A stretch of DNA of 64,000 bases from Mytilus trossulus (lineage: Eukaryota): the NCBI RefSeq assembly GCF_036588685.1, contig NC_086373.1, positions 99,696,001-99,760,000 on the forward strand, written 5' to 3'. The notes below the pieces were generated by a model that saw nothing but the letters and a program-made list of their open reading frames with translations, was not told the DNA's origin and did not search any database. The translations under genes were made by a program, and so were the position numbers. Shown piece after piece: positions 9,821-62,464 of this stretch; the first letter of the stretch is position 1, and each line of letters begins with the position of its first letter.

Positions 9821-10858
9821 AGAAAAGAGGGACGAAAGATACCAAAGGGACAGTCAAACTCATAAATCTAAAACAAACTGACAACGCCATGGCTAAAAAT
9901 GAAAAAGACAAACAGAAAAACAATAGTACATATGACACAACATAGAAAACTAAAGAATAAACAACACGAACCCCACCAAAAACTAGGGGTGATCTCAGGT
10001 GCTCCGGAAGGGTAAGCAGATCCTGCTCCACATGCGGCACCCGTCGTGTTGCTTATGTGATTACAAATCCGGTAAATAGTCTAATTCGGTAGGTCAAATT
10101 CATGAAAGGGAAGGTGATTGTAGTTACGACGTAAGGAACAAATCCGATATCATTTGTGAAATGGTTATTCCATAACGGTCAACCAACTTTACGAAGGGAT
10201 GATTTCAACTTCACCATTTGGAACTCTTGATTTAATAACTTCCTTGTGAGCAGTAACCCTCTATCAAGAAAATCATGATAGGAAATGCAAGCACGGGAAT
10301 ATCGTATCAATTGAGAGATATATACCCCGTATGCAGGTGCTGCTGGAATGTTGCTACTTAGAAATGGAAAGTTCACAATTGGAAAGCTGAAATCATCTCT
10401 TTTGTCGTAAAGTTTTGTCTTCAACCGACCCTCATTGTCAATTTCTAGATGTAAGTCAACATATGAAGCTTACTTAACTGTATCTGTAGTATCCTTTATC
10501 TCCAATTCGATGGGATAGATGCGTTCCACATAGTCACCAAATTTTGAATTGTTTAGTGATAGAACGTCATCTATATAGCGGAAAGTAGAGTTAAAGGATA
10601 TTGCTAACTTCTTATCTTTCTTCCTAAGAAGTTCCTGCATGAAGTCAGCCTCATAATAATAAAGAAACAAGTCAGCAAGTAGAGGGGCACAGTTTGTTCC
10701 CATTGGGATGCCGACAGTCTGTTGAAAAACACGTCCTCCGAACGTAACAAATATGTTGTCAATCAAGAAATCAATCATCTTGATAATATCGGTTTCAGAG
10801 AATTTTTTGTTTGAATCAGAGTGATTCTTTACAAAGTAGGATTTATCCCTCCCTCCCT
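9821..10858 (-). mobile_element. 5'-truncated Penelope-like retroelement (RT C-half plus 3' tail), inactivated
   Basis: ORFs 10470-10778 and 10179-10424 are one frame broken by a TAA. Motifs are QTVGIPMGTNCAPLLADLFL, FRYIDDVL and KLYDKRDDFSFPIVNFP...YGVYISQLIRY. A frameshifting deletion follows LRK. No GIY-YIG is seen downstream of RT. The 3' tail recurs elsewhere (~6790-6950, 14260-14530, 31170-31478, 32930-33270, 43420-43545). Confidence 0.9.
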
Positions 10859-12611: not shown

Positions 12612-13850
12612 ATACAAAGGCGTTCAGGAAAACAATGAAGCGTATACCAATTAAGAAATAATTCATGGGGGCTTGAATATATCGTGATTTTACCACGGGT
12701 TGGCCCTTTATGCAAAACATTTTACCCCTGAGCGATAGCGAGGGGTAAATATCGGCATTAAGGGACAACCGTGGTAAAATCACGATATATTCAAGCCCCC
12801 ATGAATTATTTCGATTCTAATAGGACAAATACGGCAATTCTTTTGGATCGAAGCGCCTTAGGTGAAGGCATTATTTGCCGTTCCCATAAATAAACGCACT
12901 TTTGAATTGACGTAAAAGAACAGAGCAAACTTTATAAATGGCATGCTTAAACTATTTACAATAACGTATTTAGATAGGTTTTGATGATTTTAAATTATAA
13001 CTTTACTATTTTGTTTTATATAGATGCAAACAATGGCTTATATAGCACATTTTTGCATCGTTTGTTTACGTTTCCTTGTTGTGATGATTTTGGCTTTCAC
13101 AAGCGTGTATTTTCCCGTAAAATGCTTATATTCTGACGTTAACGTTCTATGACGTCGGTAAGCTCATTCATAAAAAAACATTTGCCGTGGGAGTACGATT
13201 GGAACAGCCCATGCAATATATTCATATTTTACCACGGGTGTGTACTCAAAGCGTTTGAAGGACGTCATGTTAGAATAATACATAGCATAGATGTTGCTCT
13301 TTTATTTGATATGTAAGATCCTCAGGAAAACAAGTAAACGTATGTCAATGGCAATATTACATAGATCTTACCCTTTAATTTGGTATATAAGGCGCTTAGG
13401 AAAACAAGGAAGTGTAAATCAAAGACAACAATACATAGATGTTTCTATTCCATTTGATATATCGGAGCTCAGGAAAACAAGGAAGAGTCAATAATAACCT
13501 TACATAGATGTTTCCCGTGAACTTGGTATGAAAGGTCCTCAGGTAAACAAGTATAGGTATAGCAATGAAAATATGCAATATGTGACACTTTAATAAAATA
13601 ATCGTGATCTATCTTACCATATAATTATGTTTATATTAAATTTGGTATGTAAGGTGCACAGGAAAACAATGAAGCGTATATCAATGTAAACATTACAAAA
13701 ATCTCTATAATTTGGTATATAAGGCGCACAAAAAAAAACAAAAAACAAGGAAGCGTACGTATATCAATTTATCAATAATAACCTTACAAAGATGTTTCAA
13801 TTTGTTTTTGTCAATAAGGCTATGAGGAAAACAAGGAAGAGTACATATTT
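12612..13850. repeat. degenerate ~75-bp tandem array (caggaaaacaaggaag...catagatgtt) interrupted by a palindromic element
   Basis: The aggaaaacaa-anchored unit occurs at ~12626, 13324, 13398, 13471, 13541, 13660 and 13825. Confidence 0.75.
12652..13276. mobile_element. non-autonomous element with long terminal palindrome (Crypton-like architecture, tentative)
   Basis: Hairpin 12655-12812 (gaaataattcatgggggcttgaatatatcgtgattttaccacgg / ccgtggtaaaatcacgatatattcaagcccccatgaattatttc). A short inverted repeat attctaa...ttagaat bounds the body. It interrupts one tandem unit. Confidence 0.7.
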
Positions 13851-13864
13851 AATTACATGACATG

Positions 13865-14530
13865 ACAGAAAAGAAGCTATCGTTGTATTTTAACTTCACA
13901 TTCTTCTATATAGATGATGTCCTCTTACTAAATGATTAAAAGCTGGTGACTGCTGAACGCATCTATCAAATATAACTTTAAATGAAAGATACAACGAATA
14001 AAGTCAAGTCTGCCTCATATATTGACCTAAATCTAGACATAAACGAAACTTTATGACAATAGAAATGATTTCAGATATCCAATTGTGAACTTTTCATTTC
14101 CATATAGCACCATTTCAGCAACAGCTGCATATTGAGTATATATATCCAATTTAAAGCAAGAGTTCCAATTGGTGAATATCCGTTTAAATTAAATTTACGG
14201 ATCATATGACCAGTTGGTTGACAATTATGAAATATCTGTTTCACAGATGAACACAGGTATATTCCAATTCTTGTAACGTCAATCACGTTCTCTTTCCATT
14301 GAATGTGATCTATCGAATAAGTATTATCTCTAGGTTTTTACTTAAATGTGTATCACGTTAGGTACTTCCGGAGCATCAGAGATGAACCTGGTTTTGGTTT
14401 GGTTCATATTGCTCTTTTTCTATGTTGTGTTTCGTGTATTGTCATTTGTTTTTTCGTCGGTTTGTTTTTTGCCATGATATTTGTCTGATTGTTTTAGAAT
14501 TATAAGTTTGAATATCCTTTTTTATCCTTT
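13865..14530 (+). mobile_element. older decayed copy of the Penelope-like element
   Basis: Reads EKKLSLYFNFTFFYIDDVLLLN...KDTTNKVKSASYIDLNLDI...KLYDNRNDFRYPIVNF with stops, followed by the same 3' tail as 9821-10130. Confidence 0.8.
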
Positions 14531-15129: not shown

Positions 15130-15460
15130 GCTGTATTTCGGTCACGTAGTATTGTCATTTAAGCGATATTTTTTTAACATTGTGAAAAAGAAGGCGATTC
15201 GGCTAGCCATCAAACCAGGTTTAACCTTCACGATTATTATTAAAAGGTACTAACCAAGTCAGGTTATGGCAGTTGTTATCAAATAGTTCGTTTCTTTGTA
15301 TGTTAGTGTTTGTTTTTGTTGCGTTTCAGTTTTCTTGTTGTTCCTTTGTTTTCCGCTTTAAGTTGATGTATTTCCCTCGGTTCTAGTTTGTAAGCCGGAT
15401 GTGTTGTCTGTCATTCGATTTGTGACTTTTGAATACCGGTATACTACAGTTTCCTTTATT
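15130..15460 (+). mobile_element. decayed interspersed repeat, family of 29320-29797
   Basis: Contains ggctagccatcaaaccaggtttaacc...accaagtcagg and the tail ...ggtatactacagtttcctttattt. Confidence 0.6.
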
Positions 15461-25271: not shown

Positions 25272-27044
25272 AACTAGAGGCTCTAAAGAGCCTGTGTCGC
25301 TCACCTTGGCATATGTGAATTAAACAAAGGAAGCAGATAGTTCATGACAAAATTGTGTTTAGGTGATTGTGATGTGTTTGTACATCTTCCTTTACTGAAC
25401 ATTCTTGCTGCTTACAATTATCATTATCTATAATGAACTTGTCCGTGTAGTTTCAGTGGAAAATGTTAGAAAAAATTTACAAATTTTATGAAAATTGTTG
25501 AAATTGATTATAAAGGACAATAAATTCTTAGGGGGTCAATTGACCATTTTGGTCATTTTGACTTATTTTTTAGTCTTAAATTGCTGTACATTATTGCTGA
25601 TTACAGGTTATCTCTATCTATAATAATATTCAAGATAATAACCCAAAACAGCAAAATTTCCTTAAAATTACCAACTTAGGGGCAGCAACCCAACAACGAG
25701 TTGTCCGATTCATCTAAAAATCAGGGCAGATAGATCTTGACCAGATGAACAGTTTTACATCTTGTCAGATTTGCTCTAAATGCTTTGGTTTTTGAGTTAT
25801 AAGCCAAAAACTACATTTTACCCCTATGTTCTATTTTTAGCCGTAGCGGCCATCTTGGTAAGTTTGCCCAGTCACAAAACACAATTTTAAAACTAAATAG
25901 CCTAATAATGATTCTGGCTATGTTTGGTAAAATTTGGCCCAGTAGTTTCAGAGGAGAAGATTTTTGTAAAAGTTAATTAAGATTTACGAAAAATTTATAA
26001 AAATTGACTATAAAGGGCAATAACTCCTAAAAGGGTCAACTGACCATTTTGGTCCTGTTGACTTATTTGTAAATCTTACTTTGTTGAACATTTTTGCTGT
26101 TTACATTTTATCTCTATCCATAATAATATTCAAGATAATATCCAAAAATAGCAAAAATCCTTAAAATTACCAATTCAGGGGCAGCCACCCAACAACGGGT
26201 TGTCCCATTCATCTTAAAATTTAGGGCAGATAGATCTTGACCAGATAAACAATTTTACCCCTTGTCAGATTTGCTCTAAATGCTTTGGTTTTTTAGTAAT
26301 AACCAAAAACTGCATTTAACCTCCATGTACTATTTTTAGCCGTGGCGGCCATCTTGGTTGCTTGGTCGGGTCAAAAACACAATTTTTAAAATAGATACAT
26401 CAATGATGATTGTGGCCAATTTTGGATTAATTTGGCCCAGTAGTTTCAGAGGAGAAGATTTTTGTAAAAGATCATGAAGATTTACGAAAAATGGTTACAA
26501 ATTGACTATAAAGGGCAATAACTCATAAAGGGGTCATCTGACCATTTTGGTCATGTTGACTTATTTGTAAATCTTACTTTGCTGAACATTATTGCTGTTT
26601 ACAGTTTATCTCCATCTATTATAATATTCAAGATAATAACCAAAAACAGTAAAATTTCCTTAAAATTACCAATTTCCAACAATGGGTTGTCTGATTCATC
26701 TGAAAATTTCAGGGCAGATAGATCTTGACCTGATAAACAATTTTACCCCATGTCAGATTTGCTCTAAATGCTTTGGTTTTTGGGTATTAAGCCAAAAACT
26801 GCATTTTACCCCTATGTTCTATTTTTAGCCATGGCAGCCATCTTGGTTGGTTGGCCGGGTCAAAAAACACAAATTTTAAACTAAATACATCAATGATGAT
26901 TGTGGCCCAGTTTGGTTGAATTTGGCCCAGTAGTTTCAGAGGAGAAGATTGTTGTTAAAGTTAACGACGGACGACGGACGACGGACGCCGGACGCCAAGT
27001 GATGAGAAAAGCTCACTTGGCCCTTCGGGCTAGGTGAGCTAAAA
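25272..27044 (+). mobile_element. Helentron-associated (HINE/pearl-like) element with three ~499-bp internal tandem repeats
   Basis: Starts aactagaggctctaaagagcctgtgtcgctcacc. Units begin at 25504, 26004 and 26502. A (GACG)-type microsatellite lies at ~26965-26995. The 3' hairpin agctcacttggcccttcgggctaggtgagct is followed by an A-run. Confidence 0.85.
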
Positions 27045-29319: not shown

Positions 29320-29797
29320 AGTCCTGTAATGTTGTGTTGTCATTTTAATGTTATATTTCACATGGCCATAAAAGAGGGAGGTTTGGCATGCCACAAAACC
29401 AGGTTCAACCCACCATTTTGTCTTTAAAAATGTCCTGTACCAAGTCAGGAATATGGCAATTGTTAAACTATAGTTCGTTTCCCTTGTATGTTACATTTTA
29501 ACGTTGTGTCGTTTGTTTTCTCTTATTTTTGAGTGAAAATTCACATTACTATAAGACGTCTCACTGTACTTATCTATCCCAAATTCATGTATTTGGTTTT
29601 GATGGTATATTTGTTATTCTCGTAGGATTCTGTTTAATGCTTAGTCCGTTTCTGGGTGTGTTACATTTTAATGTTGTTTCGGTGTTCTCCTCTTATATTA
29701 AATGCGTTTCTCTCAGTTTTAGTTTGTTACCCCGATTTTTTTTTTGTCCATGGATTTATGAGTAATGAACAGCTGTATACTACTGTTGCCTTTATTT
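29320..29797 (+). mobile_element. interspersed repeat carrying a twister-like motif (29365-29457)
   Basis: The body matches 55870-56120 and 52630-52780 in reverse orientation and 7750-7955 in the same orientation. Motif: gccata-aaa-gagg-GAGGT-ttggcatgcca-caa-aaccaggtt-CAA-ccc-AC-cattttg..aaaaatg-t-cctgTACCAAGTcagg-aa-tatggc. Confidence 0.8.
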
Positions 29798-43551: not shown

Positions 43552-44110
43552 ATAAAAAGAAGATGCGGTGTGATTGCCAATGATGCAACTCTTCACAAGA
43601 GACCAAATGGAACAGTAATAAAAAAAAAACTATAGGTCACATTACGGCCTTCAACAATGAGCAAAGGCCATAGTGAATAGTAAGCTTTAAAGGCATGAAA
43701 TCACAAATGTTAAACAATTCAAACGAGAATTAAAAAAAACCCGGCCTAATTTGTGAACAAACAAAAAAATGAACAAAAAAAAACCAATTAGGTAACACAG
43801 CAACAAACGACAACCACTGAATTACAGGTTAGCTCATGAATCGGGACAGGCATTTATACATACAGAATATGGCAGGGTTAAACATGTTAGCGGAATATTA
43901 ACCCTCCCCGGCTAACCGGAGACAGTGATGTAACAGAACAACATAAGAACGAACCATGAACATCTGTTGAAAAAGGCTTAACACATCAAACGGATACAAA
44001 TGTTTCTACTAAACACAGAGTGACATGGCCGGGTACTTGTACATTCCAACAACAAATAGACACTAAGTACAGATCTGAGAGTACTCCCATTTAATGACAA
44101 CTAGTTCAAC
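43552..44110 (-). mobile_element. interspersed repeat carrying a twister-like motif (43827-43918)
   Basis: Minus strand: ggttagc-cggg-GAGGG-ttaatattccgct-aacatgtt-TAA-ccct-GC-c...g-cctgTCCCGATTcatg-a-gctaacc. Related copies at 45750-46190, 20345-20520 and 17800-17900. Confidence 0.7.
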
Positions 44111-47100
44111 TGACAACTAAAACAATTTTTTAATTGAGTTTGAATGTACCTCTAGTATATTCGCCTCTCTTTTTCAGGTGTTGTTTGAAAAGACACATAT
44201 GCATGAAAAGATGACTACCGATATAATATATACGAATAAAAGCTTTAAAAGTTTTTTTTATACGAAATCTACTGCTAGTATTGTTTCAATAAGTTGTTGT
44301 AGTCTCCGGTATTAGGCATTGAGCGAATATGATTATTGACTATTGACAAATTGATGAATATATAAAATATTGTTATTGAGGAAAAACAGCCTAGGATTAC
44401 TGTTTGAATACAATGGATATTTGGTAAAGAGTCTTATATCAAAGGGATCAAATGAGCAGCTAACAGAAGTATGACATGATGTTGATTGATCCTTCATTAT
44501 AGTTAGTTATAACGTTTGACCTTATGAACTAATATTCCGTTACTGGACATTGATATTTTAATAGTAATAGATCTTACAGTCTAGACTAAACGCATTTATG
44601 AACAGGATGATATTCACCCGACTACTAATGGCGGTTAATAGCTTCCTCTTGGTATTCTACAGGGAACCAGTTTATGCTACAAGTTGAAATTTACACAAAC
44701 ATCATTAAATGTGAGAAAAGGATTGCAACCATTTATTGTAAATCGAATTATGTAAACCTGTTTTCCCAAGGGTTAAATTTGTTTGCGAAAAGTAAATTAC
44801 TGCAATATATAACTCCTTCTTGCATGCTGTGTCACTTGGCTAAGTTCGACCAACGGCTATGCATCTAATATAGAGTTAGCATATTGTTCACTGGTTCAGA
44901 GGATACTACAATACTTGAATTATTGGTCATACAAAACATTGCAAACATTTTTCAACGGTTTCCGACGGTGAAATTGCAATAGTAATGCGGATATTTCCTC
45001 TTTATATTAAATATTCATAATACGAAGTGGAATTGGTAAAAACAATTGAAAATATAACCAACCCTTAAAACTACTTCAAACTCTTCTAGCTGTGAAGCTT
45101 GGGATTTGACTGTAGTTACTATCATTAATAAATGGTATGGTATTGTTCTGTAGGGTGATTGATTCACAGCTTTTTGTATCTACATAATACTATTGATGAC
45201 AACGGTTTAATGGATTTAATTCCAAGTTTAGATCGAAATACAACCATTTGAAAATCTGAAAAACAATCACAATAAAACATCTAAAACAGTTAATTGTCTC
45301 TTGTTTTAAGCGTACTGTTTATGTAACACAAGTCGGTGGCAATTCGTTTGACAAAATTCTATCGTTTAATGAAATAATGAATATGACAAAAGCAATTTGT
45401 GATATTTATGTAACATGTGATTTGTTTTTCAGATACAATATAACGTCAATAAGTCAAGTACTTTAAACAGCATTATTTGAAAAAGAAATAGACGGATATT
45501 TTCCGTGATGTGTTTTTTACGGAAACTCTTAAATACCAATTCATTTTGTACTTTTAACTTTTGTGGTAGTCCTTCTAATGTTGCAGTGTAGGAAGAAATT
45601 ACTAAATGTTGCATAATCAACTTCTATATTTTTCTTCAAATTCTGCAACCTCAATTGTTTATACGCAGATCATGTTGTATTACTGGTTTTGGAATTATAA
45701 CTTATTTTTGTATACTTCACATACTGAGTAATTTCTATAGATATAAAAAAAAATGTGGTACGGTTGCAAATGAGACAACTCGCCATCATAGTCAAAATTT
45801 GTAAAATTTAACATTATAGGTCAAAGTACGACCTTCAACACGGAGCCTTGGCTAACACCGAACAACAAGCTATAAAGCCAAAAAGTTGACTAGTGTATAA
45901 TCATTCAAACAGGAAAACAATTGTCTAATCTATATAAAAAACGAGAAACAATTATGAACCACATCTACAAACTACAACCACTGAACATGAGATTCCTGAC
46001 TTAGGACAGGTGCATACAAATGCAGTAGGTTAAACTGTTTTAATAGGCACCAAACTTCACACAACCAAAACAATAGTGTAACATCACAACATAGAAAGAC
46101 ACTATAAAATATCAATTGAAATGGCTAAACTCGATCAAAGGACATATTAGCAAAACAAGTGAACATACATTGAACGAATAATGTTCATTCGGTATGAATG
46201 AGTCATACCTATTTTATCATTATAAAACCTTGATTCAGAGTGTTGTTGTGTTATATAACAACATTGCTAGATCTTGATATAGTGTCAATAACTCAAGGCG
46301 TTTGATTGTATGAACTATGTCAACGCTTATTTAACATATCAAGCATATTTTATATCAGATGAGTAAGAAATTAGCTACTGTTGTATGACTGAAGTCAACA
46401 TATATACAGACTGTACAGGCAGAATAAAGATGTAGTAGTGAAATTAGACTCTATTGCAGCAATTGTTGTAGGAATATGAACGGTTAATCGTTATTGAATA
46501 TCTGTAACAGATGAAAACGCTTATGTTTCTATTGTCGTATCCAAAATCTCAACTTTAATCAGCGAAAATTTTACTAACCATGACTAAGCGGTTGCCACAT
46601 GTTAAGCAGGATTCGAAACTATTCCAAAGCGCAAGACATCACACAGGTTACATGGTCCAAGGATAATCATTTGCATGCCTCTTAACCAGTAGGCTACTAC
46701 GACAAATTATTGCTGGGCATAAACATTATACATATTGCTGACAATTAGTATGCCATCATTTACCGATTTGTTCCGGAATAAAGAAAGATTTAAATTGATG
46801 TGGTGCCACGGTCATAAAGTAATCACTAAATGAAGGATTGCATGTTCTTCCATAATCATCTATCAAAATAAAACGGAAATTGAAGTCGGAACCATATTTA
46901 TTATCTATATATGAATATGAATCCAGCCTTATACTAAAAAGTAAAATAACAAACATACAGAACTCCAAGGAAAGTCCTCATCAAATGACAAAAACACAAA
47001 GCTCCCGCACTCAAGGTAAACACGCTACCATCAAGGCGTCAAGGTTATTAGAAAACCTGGTTTTAGAAAATTCTTACATAAATACCTTTTTATAAAAGTT

Positions 47101-47698
47101 GAATCTTTTTTGTGTATTTATTGAACAATGAAAGATACTTTAAAAATTTAGTTTTAAACGAAAACTTCAAATCATATGAATAATTTTAAATGCCATCCCA
47201 TAAATAATTCGCAAACATATGTCAATTTCTCAGATGTCAGAAGAAGATGAAATATATATTGTACCACCTGGCAAAAAGTTCTCTCATTTTTACAATTTGA
47301 AGTATACTGTTATATCAAAGATCAAGAATATAGTTTTAAGCTTTGATTGAACAAATTGGAAAGTCGAACAAAAATCATGATAGGAATCAACAGACATGAA
47401 TTAGTTGTTTTACTTGTAAATTGGGCAATAGAAATTCTCCAGTTTTTAGAATATATGAGAAACAAAATCTTGATCTGATTCTATTCCCATTACCTAGTAT
47501 TAAAGTATGCGATGATTTTTCAGTCGACTTAAAATCCACTGTTATTAATCGTCATCTATATGAAATTCTGGCTATATATATATTCAATAAATTCAAGCAC
47601 TTTGGCATTAAAACAAAATTGCAGAATTGATATTTCCAGAAATGCATCACTTTTTAAATTTTGCCATAAATAATCAGTGCATTGTCTCTGGTACTGGG

Positions 47699-48235
47699 AC
47701 TACAATATGCCACTTAACAATTTATTGAAATGACTAAACAATATGCCACTAAACAATTTATTGAAATGACTAAACGATATGCCACTAAACAATTTATTGA
47801 AATGACTAAACAATATGCCACTAAACAATTTATTGAAATGACAAAACAATATGCCACTAAACAATTTATTGAAATGACTTGAACAATATGCCACTAAACA
47901 ATTTATTGAAATGACTAAACAATCTGCCACTAAACAATTTATTGAAATGACTAAAAAATATGCCACTAAACAATTTATTAAAATGTCTAAACAATATGCC
48001 AATAAACAATTTATTGAAATGACTAAACAATATGCCACTAAACAATTTATTGAAATGACTAAACAATATGCCACTAAACAATTTATTGAAATGTCTAAAC
48101 AATATGCCACTAAACAATTTATTGAAATGACTTTAACAATATGCCACTAAACAATTTATTGAAATGACTAAACAATATGCCACTAAACAATTTATTGAAA
48201 TGACTTTAACAATATGGCCCTAAACAATTTATTAA
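47699..48235. repeat. 36-bp minisatellite, ~15 copies
   Basis: Unit acaatatgccactaaacaatttattgaaatgactaa is built from two actaaacaat-headed subunits. It explains the repetitive ORFs at 47700-48150. Confidence 0.95.
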
Positions 48236-51200
48236 ACTGCGTCGATTCTTCATCCAATATATTTTAAACAGTTGTCATCTCTTATATTGAATATAAAATC
48301 AATGGAATACACACTGTAATGTATTGAAAAAACGAGTAAAACCGATTCTTGTAATTAATGTTAATGCTAGAAGGGCCATAGGACCAACATAATTTAGATG
48401 TGGATTTGATAGCGCTCATTTCCCAACTGGTTTAGAATTAATTTCAGTAAAATAATGATACAATGCACATTCTTTTACCAAAGAACTATTACTTTTTATT
48501 ACCAGATTTATTTTTATGGTCCCAAACGTCACATAACTCTATATAAGACTATAGAAAAACGCCAATGAAAGTGTTCAAGGAAGATACATTTTTACACATA
48601 ATTACAGGATATTGGGAAAACTTAAAGATAAACTCGTCAAGGGAACACCTTAGTATTACAGGATGTTATCAAAACGTAAAGCTCAATTTGTCAAGGGAAC
48701 ACCTAAGCATTGTTTGTATACATGAAAACATAACATTATGCCGTTGTAAGACAAATATATTGCTAAAATGATGTATTTTAAAATGCAGATGCAATTAAAT
48801 CTTAAGGTTACATACTGTTTTCGTCAGTCTTTTCATTGGTTGTCTTTAGAGATTTACAAGTACATCATAAAATTTAGTTGCATTGCATAACTAATTGACA
48901 ACCTAGTCTATGATCATTAACAATGAACAAGAAAAACTAATAAAACGTATAAAACTTAGCAAAATGTCTAACTTTCTAAAACATGACTGTGCATCTTAAT
49001 CAATATATACCGAAGCTGCATACAATTGATTCTCTTTATCTCAAAGCTTTTTTCTCTAAAAATACCTTTTAAAAAAGTCATAGTTAAATGTCTAACTAAA
49101 TTGATAGCTTCACATTATCATAACCTCTGATAACTCAAACTTCCTGTTAATTCATTTTTTAAACCAGTTTAAACTACTTTGAGCTAGCGAGAGTAGACTA
49201 TGTATTACACAACGGAATAGAAAAAATATCGTAACATAGATACAAGGAGATTTGGTATGACAACACTCAATCCAAATGACATGTTTCATGTCAGATGTCT
49301 TATCAGCCCTGTGTTAATACAACCCCTCTAGATAGTCATCGGTACTTCTTGGAGTGACAGTACTAAAGCCTGGGTCTGAAAATTCATCCAATATGAAAAC
49401 TGTCATGTGATATTCTGATAATATTGCATCGATAGCCATGCAATAGCCCTATATTACATATATATACTTGTATTCTTTATTGTGGCGGCAGGCGCAATTG
49501 ACAAACGACATTTTCTCTCCATGAAAGTTCATAACAATATCTGTCTTCTTCTTCAAGGTTGAAATAATTATCTATTTTCAGTTTCTTCAAGGTCAAAAGT
49601 ATTGGTCTAATTTGTATTTTGTTAGACAGATTCGTCAATATTGTTTATGAATTTTATAAAGAATATAGTCTGAACTTTCTTGAAGCATGTAGGTTATCAT
49701 AGACGAAATAACTATCATAGATCAAGTTAAATAATTTCAATGAGTCTGGCTCTATTATTTCTATAACCGATAGAAAACAACACAAAATATGCTCACTAGA
49801 TGTTGTCAGATAAAGGAGGAGATAATAGTAAACATACACCAAACACATTTAACCTTTGGCAAGTATATGGACCTTAAACAAAACTGTTAAATGACGGATT
49901 TTCAACCAAGGTTAGCACGACCTGCTTGGCATGTGAAATCCGTTAAAATACCAAGAAAATAAGTAAGATCAGAAAATGTCAAATCGGTTAAACAAAACAT
50001 CATGAAAATATAAGAAAAGTGTCTATCTAAATAGGGTAGATCCAATATAGATTATTTTTGAATATATGCATTTACAGAAATTAAAAAAAATCTCTGATAG
50101 CTAATGGTAGAACCAGGCTTACAACTTTTCATTTATTATTAATCCCTTGTTTTGGTTCTTACCAATTGGGAATAACAATCAGTCGATAACGGAGAAACAA
50201 TACGAAAAAAGACAATATAAACAATAGCATAAACTCGATAACATTTCAATTATATCAACACCTTTGATCTGAAAATATGGCATTTTAACGGTCTATGAAT
50301 GCATATTTAAAAACATTTAATCAAATATTTAAAACAAAACAAAAATCTAAAACTCATATATGGGAGACTACATTGTTGAAAACCTCTGGATGATTTTATC
50401 TGTAAGAATTATAATACTAAATTAATGTCAAAGCTCTGTGTTGAAGGCTAATTGTTAAAGTTTTATACATTTTGACTTAGATGGAGAGTTGTCTCATTGG
50501 CGCGAACACATACGACATTTTCTTATTTATATAATCAGTACACTCACACAAAGTATGGAAACTTGATTTGAAAGTTAATATTTTTTGTTATGCTTATTCA
50601 ATACGTTGATACAATTTGAATGTTAACACATGTGTCATTGAAAAACATATCGTTTGCATCGTTCATTATATTGTGAACAATTCAATGTCTTAAATCTTTT
50701 AAAAAACACAAAATTATATATTATTTGATTTTGAGACTCGGAATTCTACGTTAGACAATAAATTGATTTATTTAGACAACATCTTTACAACACATGATGT
50801 AATTTCATTATTATTACCTATAATTATCTAGGACTAGTAAAACTCTATTCTAGAAAAGACTATCATGAGAAATGTTCTATCATACTTTAGGTCAATATCT
50901 AGTCCAGATCTTTTAGAATCTTGTGGCAGATGTTCAAAGAAGATAATGTTTTCACGTTAGATTGAGTAGTATATAAAATTATGACGATAGTTTGGTTCAA
51001 AGTGAATATTTCTTTTATTATCATAGCTCTTTATAGTGCTAAACATAAATTTCCCATTGTTCCTTTTAACTTGTTTTCTTCAACTTCTCTCTCATCTTTA
51101 TGAACAAAATTATATGATAAGAGACCAAAAGATTCAATCCAACAAAGGCAAAGCAACTCGATCAATCTAACTGAATTATATAGGAATTAAAGATTATGAC

Positions 51201-51827: not shown

Positions 51828-52230
51828 AAAAAGTAAAATCACAAAAAATACTGAACTCCGAGGAAAAATTCAAAACGGAAAGTTTCTTATCAAATGGCAA
51901 AATCAAAAGATAAAACACATCAAACGAATGGAAAACAACTGTCATATTCCTAACTTGTTACAGGTATTTTCTTATGTAGAAAATAGTGGATTGAACCTTG
52001 TTTTATAGCGCTTAAACATTCTACTTGTATGACAGTCGAATCAAATTCCATTCTATTGACAATGACACGTGAACAAACAGATATAATAGGTAAAATTGTC
52101 AAAATAGGGGTACAGCAGTCATCAGTTTGTCCAAGGATTTGTATAGTTAACTATACAAATCCTTGGTTTGTCACAATCTCAATCAGAACACCAAAAAAAA
52201 AAACATTTAACAAAGAAGCACATACAAGTA
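51828..52230 (-). mobile_element. interspersed repeat (aaaagtaaaatcacaaaaatactgaactccgagg family) with twister-like motif 51937-52037
   Basis: Matches 61305-61560. Shorter fragments at 5320-5430, 8368-8475, 46935-47000 and 58045-58200. Confidence 0.8.
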
Positions 52231-55200: not shown

Positions 55201-55544
55201 TATACCGTAACAAATTTGTAATAAACAATGTTCCTGTTCATTTCATTGAGGATTACTGTATCAAAAAGGCTGTGAAGAACGTTGATTACATAATAAAGGA
55301 ATGAGTTGGTGTTTAACACTACTTTCAGCATTCCAGACTATATCGTTTTTTATTGATAGATGTTACTGGAGTGACCGGAGAGAACAATCGACCATCGACA
55401 ATCTATTGAATAAGCCTGACTAGTAGGCCTTAAACCAACACTTGGAATCAAGATATTTAGAATTATTTCATCAATTTCAATATTGACAATACGTGATAAT
55501 TGAATTATAGTTATGTTACTACTAAAGAATATGTTTTAAACAAA

Positions 55545-56910
55545 ATAACAAAACGTTTGGAATCATCAAACACAAAAGTGCATTTAACATTATAGATTCA
55601 GCAAACTTAAAAGAGCATAAAACGTTTGGGATTATCAAACACATAAATGTATTTAACATTATAGGTTCAGCAAACTCAAAAGTGCATAAAACGTTTGGGA
55701 TTATCAAACACAAAAGTGCATAAAACGTTTGGGATTATCAAACACAAAAGTGCATAAAACATTATTGGGTCGGTAAACTCAGAAGAGCCTTTTTTTTTTT
55801 TTTTTTTTTTATTTGGTCGGGTTGTTGTCTCTTTGACACATTCCCCATTTCCATTCTCAATTTTATTAAATAAAAGCAACAGTAGTATACCGCTGTTCAA
55901 ACTCATAATTCAATGGACAAAAAAAGAATCGAGGTAACAAAATAAAACCGAGCATTAAATATAAGAGGAGAACAACGACACAACACTAAAATGTAACACA
56001 CACAGAAACGAACCAAGCATCAGACGAAATCCTACGAGAATAACAAATATAAAATCAAAACCAAATACATGAATTTGGGATAGAGAAGTACCGTGACACG
56101 TCTTATCGCAATGTGAATTAAAACGTTTGGGATAATCAAACACAAAAGTGCATTAAACACACACAGAAACGGACCAAGCATCAGACAAAATCACACGAGA
56201 ATAACAAATACAACATCAAAACCAAATACATGAATTTGGAATAAACAAGTACCGTGACACGTCTTATCGCAATGTAAATTAAAACGTTTGGGATCATCAA
56301 ACACATAAGTGCATAAAACATTACAAGGCCAGCAAACTCAAAAGGACATAAAACGTTTGGAATCATCAAACACAAAAGTGCATAAAACGTTTGGGATCAT
56401 CAAACACATAAGTGCATAAGACATTATAGGATCAACAAACTCAAAAGGACATAAAACGTTTGGGATCATTAAACACAAAAGTGCATAAAACACAAAAGAA
56501 CATGAAACGTTATAAGTTAAACAAACTCAAAAGAACATAAAAAGTTTGGGATCATCAAACACAAAAGTGCATAAAACGTTTGGGATCATCAAACACATAA
56601 GTGCATAAGACATTATAGGATCAACAAACTCAAAAGGACATAAAACGTTTGGGATCATTAAAAACAAAAATGCATAAAACACAAAAAAACATGAAACGTT
56701 ATAAGATAAACAAACTCAAAAGAACATAAAAAGTTTGGGATCATCAAACACAAAAGGGCATAAAACATTATAGGATCAGCAAACTCAAAAGAAAATAACA
56801 CATTTGGTATCATCAAACACATAAGTGCATAAAACATTACAGGGCCAGCAAACTCAAAAGAACATAAAGTTTGGGAACATTAAACACAAAAAAATAAACT
56901 TTTGGATCAT
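55545..56910. repeat. composite ~34-bp minisatellite array with embedded TE fragments
   Basis: Alternating units aaaacgtttgggatcatcaaacacaaaagtgcat and aaaacattataggatcagcaaactcaaaag, interrupted at 55790-56280. Confidence 0.9.
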
Positions 56911-59439
56911 CAACCTCGAAACAAATTAATAAAATTGAGAATAGAAATGGGGAATGTGTCAAAGATACAACAACCCGACAAAATAAAAAAACAACAACAG
57001 AAGGTCACCAACAGGTCTTCAATGTAGCGAGAAATTTCCGCACCCGGAGACGTCCTTCAGCTGGCTATTAAAATCAAGAAACCCAAAAGTACATACATGT
57101 ACAAACTTTGAATTATCAAACCCACAAGGATTTCAACAAAGCAGGAAACAACGTTAATTTTGGTCATTGGATTTTTACGTTCTTTGAGTATAAGTTCAAA
57201 AATTGGAAATAGGAATGAAACTTCATAAAGAAAAACTACAAAATCTAGTACTGTGTATTTTCCAAGTTTTAAAAGCTAACAGCTTTAACAGCCGTTTTAA
57301 GATATATCAAGACAAACAAAAAAACATTTTATTGGAGAGATAGCCATACAGAATTTACAATAGAGTTAATAGATAGAATTTCATAAAGTCATTGAAACCT
57401 ACAGAGATAAAGTAAATTTTTCTTATAAGGACATACTATCATAAATCTGACAGACGGTTTTGGAGCATATATCCTATAAAATTGAGAATGAGGAATATGT
57501 CAAAGAGACACCAACCCAACCATAGAACAGACAACAGCAGAAGGTCACCAACAGGTCTTTATTGTATCGAGAAATTCCCACACTCGGAGGCGTCCTTCAC
57601 CTATGCATCATTTAAACTATAAACATTAGAATTTCAAAGAACAAAGTAACATTTGGAGGTACCAACTTGGCAATCAGTAGCTTTTTTTCGAAAGACAGGA
57701 AAGCGAGTTCAAGATAAACACTAACATCTACATCAACATCGTACAAAGAAACTGAATAAATCATCTCCGGATAAATAGCAGTTAACATTTAAAAAACTGA
57801 TTTAGTCACCGAACATTGTTGGTGGGTCTTTGCCTAAAAAAGAATAGTGCGATAATTTGGATTTGTTTCAATCAAACTGTTCGTCTGTAAAACGCACATA
57901 TATGTTAAATACATGTTTGCAGATTCAGAGGTAGATGCAATATTTTATTATAGTCTCAATACCCGTAATACAGAGTATATACACAATATATTACAGACAT
58001 CATACAAATATAAAATATAAGCACATTCTTTTAATGTTTGGAAAAAAGTAAAATAACTAAAAGACCGAATTCCGTGGAAAACTTCAAATGGAAGGTCTCT
58101 AAGCAAATGGCATAACGAAAATTATCAAACACATCAGACGAATTGATAATATCGTCATAATCCTGACATGTATCATTTGATATTCTAGCAAGCATATTTT
58201 CCCTGTGTAATTTGCTATTAAAAATCGACAAACGGAATACAGATATCATAAACATTTGCCTAAATTTGACCACCATTTTAAAGATATATTATAGAAGTTT
58301 AACGGAATTATCTATAGAAATCTAAAACATGTGGGGATTAGCACAATGGATGTATTTAAAATGGTTAAAAAGCAACTATGGAAATACGTCAATAAGTAAT
58401 TTAATAATTTAAAGAAATACTAAAATGATATTCATTATTGAGATGTTCTGCAATGAAGAATTAAGTACAGCTAATTCTTGGCACTGCACGGTATCGTGTT
58501 TTACCTGTTCTATTTGTGACGATGTTTTATAAAACCTGCTATTAAGTACAACAACCGATTACTAGACTCCACGAGTCAAACAAGGTCAGTGACCAACAGG
58601 AATATGACAGGTATTTTTCACTTGGTTGGTTGATAACCGTGTTATGTTGTCGTTTTTTGTAGACTTAGAATAGAGAAAGAGACAACAACCCGATCAAAGA
58701 TAGGCCACAAAAGGGTCTCCAATGCTTAAATACATTCTGCACCCGAAGTCTTCGGCTTGTCCCTTAACAACAATGCTTACAAGTTCAGCAAAAAAGACAC
58801 CACATTACAATAAAAACCACACACAAAGACCAACATAGGATAAAGGTTCCACAAGTACTATAGACTCAAAATGTGGCGGTGTAAAACATTATGTGTGAGC
58901 TCAATCACCTCTCACACTTGTTAAATAAACACACACACACAGCAAAACGCACATCCATGTAGAGCAGAGTTTGATAGAAGTCCGAGTCCGATGTTAGAAT
59001 AGGTAACAGAAGGAATTAAGCAAAATGACAATGATAAATATTAATTTACAAAAGGCTTCTAGTATTTACAAACATATGCCAGTTCCAGAAATCAATTGAA
59101 CTGATTGAGAGATTTTGTCTTTATCATATGAAAATCAAGCAAATCCCTCCCATCATAAATCATACGAGAAAACACTTCCCCAATCAGGCCAACAACTTCT
59201 TTTAGAATAAATGTGTTTATTTTCGATGCAAAGACCCTATAATATTAATTCCAAAAGATACCATCTTTAATGACTTGAAAACAGTATCGTAACCATATCC
59301 CTTGTGTATGGTTCTGTTTAAATGTTTGGTTAGCTTTTTCAGGTGAATGACGACATTTTATTTTGGTGATTTGTATAGAATATTGCCATTAAAGCCGAGA
59401 TGTGAAATCTCTGCCATAAAATATGCCTACACGTTGATT

Positions 59440-61270
59440 TTTTTATAATTACCGATCTTTTTACACGATTCATTGCTATTGTTTGACTACTCTTTATATC
59501 TAAATCATTGCTGTTAATATACTCATCTTTATAATTGATTCATTGCTGTTCCATTTTACACTGTGTTACCGAATCATTTAAGTTTAAAGACAACTCCTTT
59601 TAATTGAATAACTGTTGTTTTGACTACTCTCTATTACTGATTATTTGCTGTTGACAGAAAAATCTTTATAACCTATTCATTGGTGTTTATAGACCACTAT
59701 TTATAAACGATTCATTGTTATTGATAGACAAATCTCTGTTACCGACTCTTTTATGTTGATAGACAATTCCGATTATGAACTGCTGCCAATAGACAACTCT
59801 TTGCTACCTATTCATTGCTGTTGACTATTCTGTATAACTGAGTAACTGCTGTTATTAGACTATTCTTTATATTCTATTCATTTTCGATGATAGACAATTC
59901 TGTTACCGATTATAAACTGATGTCACTAGACAACTCTTTGCTATCTATTCAATGATGTTGATAGACTATTCTTTATAACCGAGTAGTTACTGTTAATAGA
60001 CTATTCTTTATATTCTATTAATTTTTTGATGATAGACAATTCTGTTACCGATTATAAACTGCTGTCCACTCTTTGTTACCTTTTCATTCTTATCGTTTGA
60101 CCACTCTTTATAACCGATTAATTGATGTTGTAAGACAATTCTTTATAATATATTCATTGGTGTTGATAGACCACGATTGATAAACGATTCATTGCTGTTA
60201 ATATACTATCCTTTATTCCTATTCTATGCATTGTTGTTCATAGACAGTTCTGTAAGACTACTATCATATAATCAATTCATTACTGTTGTAAGATTTCTCT
60301 TTGTGTAACGAATTCATTGCCGAAGTTAGACTACTCTTTATATCTTATTCTTTGCTGCTGAAAAACAATTCTTTATATTCCATTCATTGGTGTTGTTAGA
60401 CAACTATTTATTACCGAGTCATTGCGGTTAATAAGCTATATTTGAAGTCTTCATAATCTGATCATTGGTGTCAGTATGATACCGGCTATGTTCTTCTCAG
60501 ACATTTTATAATGGTATGTCTAGAGCTGGCATGTCAGGAATTGCTAGTAGTCCTTTATTTATGTACTTGTCATTGTAATATGACTAAGTATTTGACATCG
60601 GACTCGGACTTCTTTTGAAATTACTTTGCTGTGATTATTGCTTTTTTTCCCCCTTTAATTTACATTGGTTAGAGGTATAGTGGAGGTTGAAACATCACAA
60701 AACATGTTTAACCCCGCCGCATTTTTTGCAAGATGCCTCTGGCCTTTGTAAGTCTTGTATGTTTTTTAAATTTAGTTCATTTATATGTTTTTGAGGTTAG
60801 TGCGACGTTCATTTTCCCTGAACTAGTACACATTTTTATTTTGAGTGAGGTGCTTCTCCGGGTGCGGGAATATCTCGCTGCGTTGGAGGCCCATCAATAA
60901 CCATCGTTTTTCATCTACTTTTTGATTGGGTTGTTTGTCTTTTTCATATATTAAACATTGCCATTCTAAAATGTAATTCTTTGTTACCTATTCATTGCTG
61001 TTGATAGACAATTCGCTGTTATCGACTCGTTGCTTTTGATAAACTACTTTTTAACCGATTTATTGCTGTAGATAGACACTCTTTTTTTTTACCGATGCAT
61101 TGTTATTAATATACTATTCTATATAACTGACATTGCTATTGATATCATTTGACAATTCTTTGTTACCGAATCATTTTAGTTTATATACAATTCTTTGTAA
61201 TTGATTCGCTGTTGTTGAAAGATAACTCTTTATGACTCTTTTGTATAACTGATACAATTTTTTTAGACAA
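59440..61270. repeat. highly degenerate ~35-40-bp minisatellite split by an interspersed-repeat insertion (60440-60975)
   Basis: Recurrent gatagacaattct..ttaccgattcattgctgtt on both sides of the insertion. Confidence 0.8.
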
Positions 61271-61304: not shown

Positions 61305-61775
61305 AAAAAGTAAAAACACAAAAATACTAAACTCAAAGGAAAATTCAAAAAGGAAAATCAAAAATCAAAAGGTAAAATCAAAAGTCAAAACACATAAAAC
61401 GAATGAATAACAACTGTCATATTCCTGACTTGGTACAGGCATTTTCTAATGTAGAAAATGGTGGATTGAACCTGGTTTTATAGCTAGCTAAACCTCTCAC
61501 TTTTATGACAGTCGCATCATATTCCATTACATTGTCAACGATGAATGAACAAAACAATGTGATACGACTGTAATACAAGTGAGAGGTTTACCGGTATAAA
61601 ACCAAGTTCAATCCATCATTTTCTACATTTAAAAATGCTTGTACCATTTCAGGAATGTGGCAGTTGTTGTCCATTCGTTTGATGTGTTTTATCGTTTGAT
61701 TTTGTCATTTGATTGGGAAATTTCCATTTAGTTTAGAATTTTCCTCGGAGATCAGTATTTTTGTGATTTTACTTT
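61305..61775. mobile_element. two copies of the same family in inverted, head-to-head arrangement
   Basis: 61305-61515 is the diverged reverse complement of 61565-61775. Confidence 0.85.
61411..61513 (-). ncRNA. best-preserved twister-like (P5-type permuted) structured RNA motif
   Basis: gactgtcata-aaa-gtga-GAGGT-ttagctagcta-taa-aaccaggtt-CAA-tcc-AC-cattttcta(cat)tagaaaatg-cctgTACCAAGTcagg-aa-tatgacagtt. The P5, P3 and P4 helices and both pseudoknot pairings can be drawn. Confidence 0.55.
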
Positions 61776-62464
61776 TCAAAGAGTAACTCATATACAACCT
61801 TGCTATACTTAAATAATTCCACTAGGTTATGTCTCATGTGGAAATGAGTGTTAATAGACGATAAGGTGTATCGATTCATTGTTTTGATAGACAACTCTTT
61901 TGTAATATTAATTGTTGTAATATATTTGAAAAGTATTTGGAAAAGAGTTGATTTATCAGATCTGTATGAAAAACACGAAAACAAGACCAAAAAAATCCAC
62001 AAAGCACCGATCAAATAGAACTCGCAGCTACAAATCAAAAAAACAGTATCAACTAGTAAATAATGTTAACCAACATTAAAACGTCATCAGTCAGTAAATA
62101 TCCAACGGATTTTAAATAATGACGTCATAAACAGTCTGAATGAGACGTGACCTAGTGCAGTACCAAAATATACATTAAAAGTATCGGCAAGGTGTGAGAT
62201 AATAAATGTTGACTATTTTTAACAAAACATACTTGGCCATGTTTTAATCCTAATTTTTATTGGATTTCTACCGAATTGTAGTACCTTAGAATTTAGTTAA
62301 GATTTTAGTAAGTATACTTTTTGTATAGAGAAATTGAAAAATCCAAGTACAATTTCATTTTTTATTTTTAATATTCAAAGACAAAAGACTAAGTTTCATC
62401 CAATATTGATGTAATTTGATAGAGCTTTGTCCAGATCATGGTAGAATGTGTAAATTATTCAAGT

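Follow-up and report, generated by a model that had tools for sequence, protein, structure and literature searches.

The window analysed here, a 64,000-nucleotide stretch of the Mytilus trossulus genome, is AT-rich animal DNA that contains no open reading frame of at least 150 amino acids. Near its end, self-BLAST reveals two copies of one repeat arranged head to head, at 61305-61553 on the minus strand and at 61556-61776 on the plus strand. A preliminary description had given the range 61468-61602 for palindromic segments in place of P1. The palindromic segments are indeed there; the range is not a single element, however, and spans the spacers of both copies. In a profile search, the window yields nine copies of a twister-like motif at E values up to 0.022, plus one fragment; six of the nine were already in the alignment on which the profile was trained. 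The copies and their neighbors are as follows:

61305..61553, minus strand: 3' end (pLTR region) of a Naiad element, 5'-truncated, Naiad_Mgal type, the least decayed copy, delimited by self-BLAST extent and consensus comparison; spacer-bearing part 61411-61512
61556..61776, plus strand: second, more decayed copy; palindrome 1 TACCGGTA at 61589-61596, palindrome 2 broken (61600-61608); spacer-bearing part 61567-61666
29365..29462, plus strand: copy of another subfamily; core intact, both palindromes intact (TGGCATGCCA and AACCAGGTT)
51936..52036, minus strand: decayed copy with AGCGCT; box and palindrome 2 broken
15182..15275, plus strand: decayed copy; both palindromes retained, box and P4 damaged
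43825..43916, minus strand: copy of the GAGGG/4-bp-P2 subfamily; palindrome 2 AACATGTT intact
60674..60737, plus strand: decayed copy without P4; palindrome 2 intact
45989..46061, minus strand: decayed copy
58868..58922, minus strand: decayed partial copy with TGAGCTCA at 58896
59223..59408, minus strand: broken C-terminus of a Naiad-type reverse transcriptase (RT) ORF (tblastn with P0002: 58% over 65 aa, E = 1.7e-13), with an in-frame stop, about 310 nt upstream of the copy with the 58896 palindrome
9957..10056, minus strand: a different, uncatalogued motif with two palindromes, with a Naiad-type RT remnant upstream of it (10188-10844, minus); fold z = -3.18

The plus-strand member of the head-to-head pair has an altered L4 and, because of this change, has lost T2. 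Its fold scores z = -1.27, and it is probably dead. A MITE with terminal inverted repeats was considered for 61305-61776 and excluded: the arms are two 5'-truncated Naiad 3' ends, and their palindromes differ. Rfam matches to miRNA families at 61469-61608 merely reflect the head-to-head inverted copies. Elsewhere, the window holds arrays of ~35-nt units from three separate families and a ~500-nt tandem repeat (59420-61240, 55530-56910, 47630-48280, and 25376-26964), as well as a MITE-like, perfect 44-nt inverted repeat with arms 70 nt apart (12655-12812).

Sequence comparison places the motif in the 3' end of Naiad Penelope-like elements (PLEs), which makes the analogy to Penelope drawn in the preliminary description stronger than was first supposed. 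Specifically, positions 61412-61514 differ, by eye, from the 3' end of the Naiad_Mgal consensus at only 2 of 103 bases, both unpaired. (Consensus names are assigned from file order in the supplement of PMC8557442.) The motif is present in five of the 25 Naiad consensus 3' ends viewed, of 54 listed: Mgal, Bpla, Mphi, Scon, and Mmer, all from bivalves. A metagenome scan, using a pattern that fixed the core and left the spacer free, returned 19 loci, and in eight of them the C-terminus of an RT ORF lies ~320 nt upstream of the motif on the same strand. Longer relatives of this ORF are RTs that stop after the thumb region. The protein P0002 carries RT motifs like those in the Naiad alignment rows and ends after the thumb with no C-terminal GIY-YIG; P0007 gives a weak match to Pfam RVT_1 (E = 0.013). 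Neither the window nor the metagenome loci contain a full-length ORF that would include the N-terminal GIY-YIG, CxC, and DKA motifs of Naiads. Naiad insertions are described as partial tandems with inverted copies (PMC8557442). The window copy, in addition to matching Naiad_Mgal, resembles the Naiad clade of Craig et al. 2021 (PMC8557442) in its 5' truncation and its inverted neighbor: 61305-61553 (minus) lies beside 61556-61776 (plus). The copies of this pair are 78% alike and their palindromes differ, so they may stem from more than one insertion event. The same article describes Naiads as lacking canonical hammerheads, and a term search of its main text does not return the word "twister."

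Several other features of Naiad elements came to light. Two Naiad-type RT remnants in the window, at 10188-10844 (minus) and 13859-14189 (plus), are inverted and ~3 kb apart, a typical PLE arrangement. Between the ORF end and the twister, SECIS-like matches occur in two metagenome loci (L009, 777-841, minus, 30.9 bits; L010, 614-678, minus, 28 bits; cut-off 35), and a deleted SECIS remnant may, by eye, lie near window positions 59130-59170. Craig et al. list SECIS elements only for spider and clam Naiads. Hammerhead-like core words can be seen by eye near the 3' ends of Naiad_Amil, Movir-2, Plae, Obim, Smim, and Ppla in File S5 of PMC8557442. In four of these six, GAAA precedes CUGANGA, which looks, by eye, like a permuted hammerhead.

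The motif itself is organized in the same order on the sense strand of each intact copy: P5, P2', GAGG(G/T), a spacer of mostly 21-23 nt, NAA, P2, T2, P3, P4/L4, and P5'. This order is that of the Rfam type-P5 twister consensus line, with the termini in P5. The parts of the least decayed copy, all on the minus strand, are as follows:

61410..61515, minus strand: whole type-P5 twister-like motif; P5 pairs 61504-61515 with 61410-61421
61492..61500, minus strand: 3' strand of P2 (61497-61500, with one bulged base) and GAGGU box (61492-61496), assigned by a P2 register test and T1 counts; the box contains a putative general-base G, then the 3' strand of T1
61481..61490, minus strand: palindrome 1 TAGCTAGCTA, where the 3' strand of P1 would sit
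61469..61477, minus strand: palindrome 2 AACCAGGTT, with one unpaired central base, where the 5' strand of P1 would sit, directly 5' of the predicted cut
61466..61468, minus strand: N^AA site, with the cut predicted between 61468 and 61467 from position relative to Rfam twister consensus lines
61424..61465, minus strand: 5' strand of P2 (61463-61465), T2 (61461-61462), P3 (61440-61460), and P4/L4 (61424-61439), assigned by a partial Rfam match and pair counts

The twister fold is very probably real. In the least decayed copy, the P5 duplex is predicted at -16.9 kcal/mol, a value that none of 300 shuffles equaled, and the whole fold scores z = -3.99. Among 20 aligned copies, 91% of 240 cells in T1, T2, P3, and P4 are paired, and double-sided changes in the core number 27, against 10.7 in shuffled controls and at most 8 in slid controls. 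T1, which joins L4 to the box, is paired in 95% of cells; its first, variable pair is G-C in ten copies and U-A in the other ten, and U-U in three consensi (Mphi, Scon, and Mmer). T2 is paired in 85% of cells and by eye changes from AC/GU to CC/GG in Scon and Mmer, although part of it was fixed by the search pattern in the metagenome loci. An extra G-C pair in P4, the A's at the cut, and the G and A in the box are kept in the copies and in all five consensi; in the metagenome loci these bases were partly fixed by the pattern, and P4 pairing counts for little there because the pattern largely fixed P4. By eye, P4 and T2 show two-sided changes among the Naiad consensi, and across the five twister-bearing consensi such changes extend to P2 and P5. 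Of 21 copies, whose stem sequences are unrelated, 15 have a P5 duplex better than at least 99% of shuffles. All four P2 pairs form in 8 of the 24 copies and in two of the consensi, Scon and Mmer. In the Naiad_Mgal-type subgroup, to which the 61305..61553 copy belongs, P2 consists of two pairs, a bulge, and one pair, with a 5' strand of 3 nt; a review of twisters suggests that P2 length is critical (PMC5408937). Families from mussels and clams alike retain the bases found at positions that are catalytic in the Rfam consensus lines. We judge it probable that the motif self-cleaves.

Standard models do miss the motif, as had been anticipated: Rfam ribozyme families give no match in the whole window at the gathering cut-off or at E values up to 5. 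A search with the hammerhead family likewise gives no match, and the fold is twister-like. Below the cut-offs, the best scores are 18.5 bits, for a partial match of twister-P1 to 61417-61465 (cut-off 67.2), and 19.4 bits, for metagenome locus L020 against type-P5 twister RF02684 of clan CL00120 (cut-off 37.6). These weak matches, together with the covariation in T1, P3, and P5, back the twister identity in the preliminary description. The motif shares with RF02684 the succession of P2', GAGGG-like box, ~20-nt spacer, NAA, P2, T2, and P4/L4, both pseudoknots, and the conserved L1 and L4 positions. It differs in having two palindromes in place of the P1 hairpin, an L4 that ends in GU or GG with compensation in T2, a long P3 and P5, and, in one subgroup, the 3-bp bulged P2. 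One metagenome locus, L008, carries instead a type-P1 twister (75-138, plus), which scores 40.9 bits (E = 2e-6), short of the cut-off. Its P4/L4 is identical in sequence to that of the Naiad motif, but its host repeat is different; it is possibly a relative of the donor. In L019 and L022, an L009-type twister follows upstream sequence that resembles the Mgal-type family, and their 3' ends are possibly chimeric. Scans of viral sequences gave five matches to a 17-base pattern, none in a twister context, and none to the full pattern; a single bacterial match from the genome scan was discarded, as the structure was absent.

To count palindromes, we used 24 copies with distinct spacers, nine from the window and 15 from the metagenome loci. 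L008 was excluded as a type-P1 twister, and L017, L018, and L023 were left out for their identical spacers. No ordinary P1 pairing had been evident at first sight, and the counts agree: 22 of the 24 copies have zero or one of four possible pairs, G-U allowed. Palindrome 1, of at least 6 nt, occurs in 17 copies, against 4.1 expected from mononucleotide shuffles of each spacer; two of these, one in L024 and one in the 43906 copy, consist only of A and T and could have arisen by chance. Palindrome 2, with 8 paired nt, occurs in 16 copies (0.8 expected). Both occur in 13 (0.14 expected); related copies are not independent, and these counts are therefore not p-values. Both also occur in all five twister-bearing consensi. 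In the order Mgal, Bpla, Mphi, Scon, and Mmer, palindrome 1 reads TAGCTAGCTA, GGCGCC, TGATGCATCA, TGGAGCGCTCCA, and GGTGCGCACC, and palindrome 2 reads AACCAGGTT, AATCTGATT, AACCTGGTT, AACCAGGTT, and AACCGGTT. Thus, P1 has been replaced by two palindromes of varying sequence, as the preliminary description proposed, and palindromy is conserved among genomic copies.

Details of that description fared variously. Its six first palindromes all lie where it placed them on the plus strand. Within the window, both palindromes are intact in only four of nine copies, one of the four with an AT-only first palindrome; palindrome 2 is broken in the 61589, 52007, and 58896 copies. A GAGG(G/T) box precedes the palindromes in intact copies, as claimed, but no longer does so in the 15201 and 52007 copies. 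Many of the copies without palindromes are visibly decayed elsewhere too. Sequencing reads aligned to the least decayed copy contain a 2-base deletion at 61485, with loose ends at 61484, giving a shorter palindrome, TAGCGCTA. About 40-50% of the aligned reads show C/T variation at the N of the N^AA site.

A double palindrome recurs in a second Naiad motif, exemplified by window positions 9957-10056, where Rfam ribozyme families give no match at E values up to 10. A decayed half lies at about 33122 (minus). By eye, the second motif is present in 10 of the 25 Naiad consensi viewed, and one more was found by search, for a total of 11, in the same place as the twister; hosts of the ten are oysters, an ark clam, a pearl oyster, hemichordates, and Clytia. 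A stem of 6 bp surrounds its two palindromes, and the remainder comprises a covarying, pseudoknot-like interaction, a hairpin, and a stem that closes the structure. The palindromes, of 10 nt and 6-8 nt, vary in sequence, and in three consensi they contain, by eye, a sense-strand G-U pair. We consider this structure a candidate new ribozyme class. The fact that a double palindrome is common to two different Naiad folds strengthens the case for RNA-RNA pairing; it fits either a gate on cleavage or another need of the element.

What, then, do the palindromes pair with? In 14 of 23 copies (the 24-copy set less L012, which has a long insertion), the outer arms fix the axis of palindrome 1, and in 11 of these 14 the central 4 nt are self-complementary. 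Five different centers occur, GATC, GCGC, CTAG, CCGG, and CATG, with TGCA in Naiad_Mphi. The chance of a self-complementary center is 1/16 per independent change. Predicted energies for intact palindrome 1 are 0 to -1.5 kcal/mol as hairpins and -12.5 to -19.6 kcal/mol as homoduplexes; for intact palindrome 2, 0.0 and about -5 to -9 kcal/mol. At 61481..61490 the two values are 0.0 and -15.6 kcal/mol, and at 61469..61477 they are 0.0 and -8.2 kcal/mol. Among the eight variants compared, the homoduplex is in every case better than every heteroduplex. With centers self-complementary and hairpins near 0 kcal/mol, pairing between two RNAs is favored over two hairpins. Pairing between molecules, one of the two readings first offered, is thus well supported by inference from center palindromy and duplex energies, and we regard it as probable that the palindromes pair between copies. 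The other, a two-hairpin form, fares poorly: the loop centers are themselves palindromic, and the hairpins are not predicted to be stable.

Geometry constrains how such pairing could occur. In a toy model of two A-form helices, which covers parallel axes only, the loops were linked in every case at 8+8 bp or more; at 6+6 bp, 2 of 28 allowed geometries left them unlinked, and at 4-5 bp per helix about half did. It would therefore be hard for folded copies to pair both palindromes over their whole length; either only the middles would pair, or pairing would take place during folding or after cleavage.

Precedent for such pairing comes from other PLEs. Minimal type I hammerheads occupy the same position, the pLTR, in the same class of element (Cervera and de la Pena 2014, PMC4209133; Lunse et al. 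2017, via PMC6765202), and those with a palindromic loop 3 are reported to work as dimers (PMC4209133, PMC6765202). Like the Naiad motif, they are described as having an unstable palindromic helix just 5' of the cut (PMC4209133). Dimer-dependent cleavage has been proposed or shown for them in these reports; for the Naiad twister, it is predicted from center palindromy and energies. The ribozyme class differs, as does the architecture. The hammerheads, as reported, use one short palindromic loop and exchange strands, whereas the Naiad twister has two palindromes of 6-12 nt. As these lie in series with no linker before the cut, pairing of each palindrome with its own kind would return each strand to its own core, and the geometry fits two unswapped cores bridged by side-by-side helices. 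Our verdict is that the Naiad motif combines the fold of a type-P5 twister with what would be the mode of action of a dimeric PLE ribozyme. A further comparison is provided by the T-variant twisters of Schistosoma Perere-3 (Liu et al. 2021, PMC8501958). They, too, have a weak or missing P1 inside a retrotransposon and are reported active in vitro. Unlike the Naiad motif, they occupy the 5' end of their host, which is an APE-type non-LTR element, and the degradation of their P1 is attributed to a 5' strand supplied by the target site. Neither "dimer" nor "Penelope" appears as a word in the main text of that article.

The notion that we advance, at what we judge to be even odds, is a dimer-gated type-P5 twister: palindromes replace P1, and pairing with a second copy would switch on cleavage at N^AA. 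A lone copy would be poorly active, because the G's of the box, needed for pseudoknot T1, would be bound up with the spacer, blocking T1. Consistent with this step, the G's of the box are predicted by nested folding to pair with the spacer region in 10 of the 11 copies folded (probability 0.69-1.0; the eleventh has lost the box), although this self-inhibiting stem may be overstated because the folding program cannot form T1 or T2. Two copies could meet within one partial-tandem transcript or through separate transcripts of the same family. Each copy's palindrome 1 would pair with its counterpart in the other copy, as would its palindrome 2 through the middle bases. Partner pairing would free the box and hold the two former P1 strands together, with cores not exchanged. 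The cut would trim or monomerize the element RNA, the role proposed for dimeric hammerheads of other PLEs. Palindrome 1 differs between families and would serve as a self-recognition code.

That the dimer gates cleavage is the part of this proposal on which we are evenly divided. The palindromes may instead serve RNA dimerization without gating, because P1 is dispensable in vitro and full pairing is topologically strained. Specifically, a twister without P1 is reported to cleave at an almost wild-type rate (PMC5408937), and loss of P1 alone therefore does not force a dimer. The short, bulged P2 of the Naiad_Mgal-type subgroup also counts against the proposal. The strongest rival, which we deem somewhat unlikely, builds on this point: the P1-less twister would cleave as a monomer, and the palindromes would dimerize the element RNA for another step, for instance, joining two templates for reverse transcription or template switching, or loading on a protein dimer. 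Template switching would give tandem and inverted insertions, as Naiad insertions are described to be (PMC8557442); a PLE protein is predicted to be dimeric (PMC11167929); and the second motif, unrelated-looking and at the same position in 11 consensi, also has, by eye, two variable palindromes. Nonetheless, the palindromes lie exactly in the P1 slot beside the cut, like the palindromic helix III described in PLE hammerheads (PMC4209133), and box sequestration is predicted in the monomer; both speak against this rival.

An improbable alternative is a twister-derived fold that does not cleave alone or at all, and instead functions as a protein-binding or protein-assisted RNA structure. The anole PLE hammerhead is reported to cleave only with the element's protein (PMC11167929), and minimal PLE hammerheads are described as weak in vitro (PMC4209133). 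Three raw RNA runs, which cover both strands about equally, show no pile-up of read ends at the predicted cut, a weak test with fragmented libraries and mostly decayed copies; the index of sequencing runs lists no RNA run with the motif. Genomic copies retain ~160 nt downstream of the predicted cut, and this stretch therefore belongs to the template that is reverse transcribed. The retention would, we infer, be explained by a distal copy that stays uncut or by a circle formed through ligation. Against this alternative, the nucleotides at catalytic positions are kept across mussel and clam families, and protein assistance is in any case compatible with a dimeric gate.

Quite improbable is the idea that the palindromes act as DNA or cDNA, as a cruciform or protein site, or that they arose by mutation as a side effect of reverse transcription. 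A perfect palindrome is identical on its two strands, and sequence alone therefore cannot separate RNA from cDNA. However, the sequence varies freely, contrary to a sequence-specific DNA site, and the arms are too short for a cruciform. Moreover, the defects in imperfect palindromes are, by eye, G-U on the sense strand and would be C-A on the other; they occur in the Naiad_Bpla flank and, for the second motif, in Sglo, Pfla-2, one Clytia consensus, and window positions 10028-10037. Finally, two small intramolecular hairpins standing in for P1 in a monomeric twister are very improbable: each palindrome can formally fold back, a few at -1.1 to -1.5 kcal/mol, yet most such hairpins are predicted at 0.0 kcal/mol, and a hairpin loop has no reason for the self-complementarity seen in 11 of 14 copies with five different centers.

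We speculate, while rating the idea as rather unlikely, that at least two unrelated Naiad folds, the twister and the second motif with its possible new class of self-cleavage, use the same device, that cleavage occurs only in family-specific dimers with palindrome 1 as a barcode, and that the pairs template the tandem and inverted insertions. The openly accessible literature searched contains no description of the motif, and no natural dimer-dependent twister was found in it.

From the side of the elements, a twister in the hammerhead slot of PLEs fills a gap for part of the Naiad clade. From the side of ribozyme annotation, Rfam undercounts twisters in animal genomes; in one DNA run, 80,014 contigs fall on a 271-nt stretch of this locus. 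If dimer gating is true, the Naiad motif would be a naturally occurring twister that depends on a dimer and takes the role that dimeric hammerheads have in other PLEs, and two ribozyme classes would have converged on palindrome-mediated dimerization. An RNA of ~105 nt is well suited to asking why PLE ribozymes need partners.
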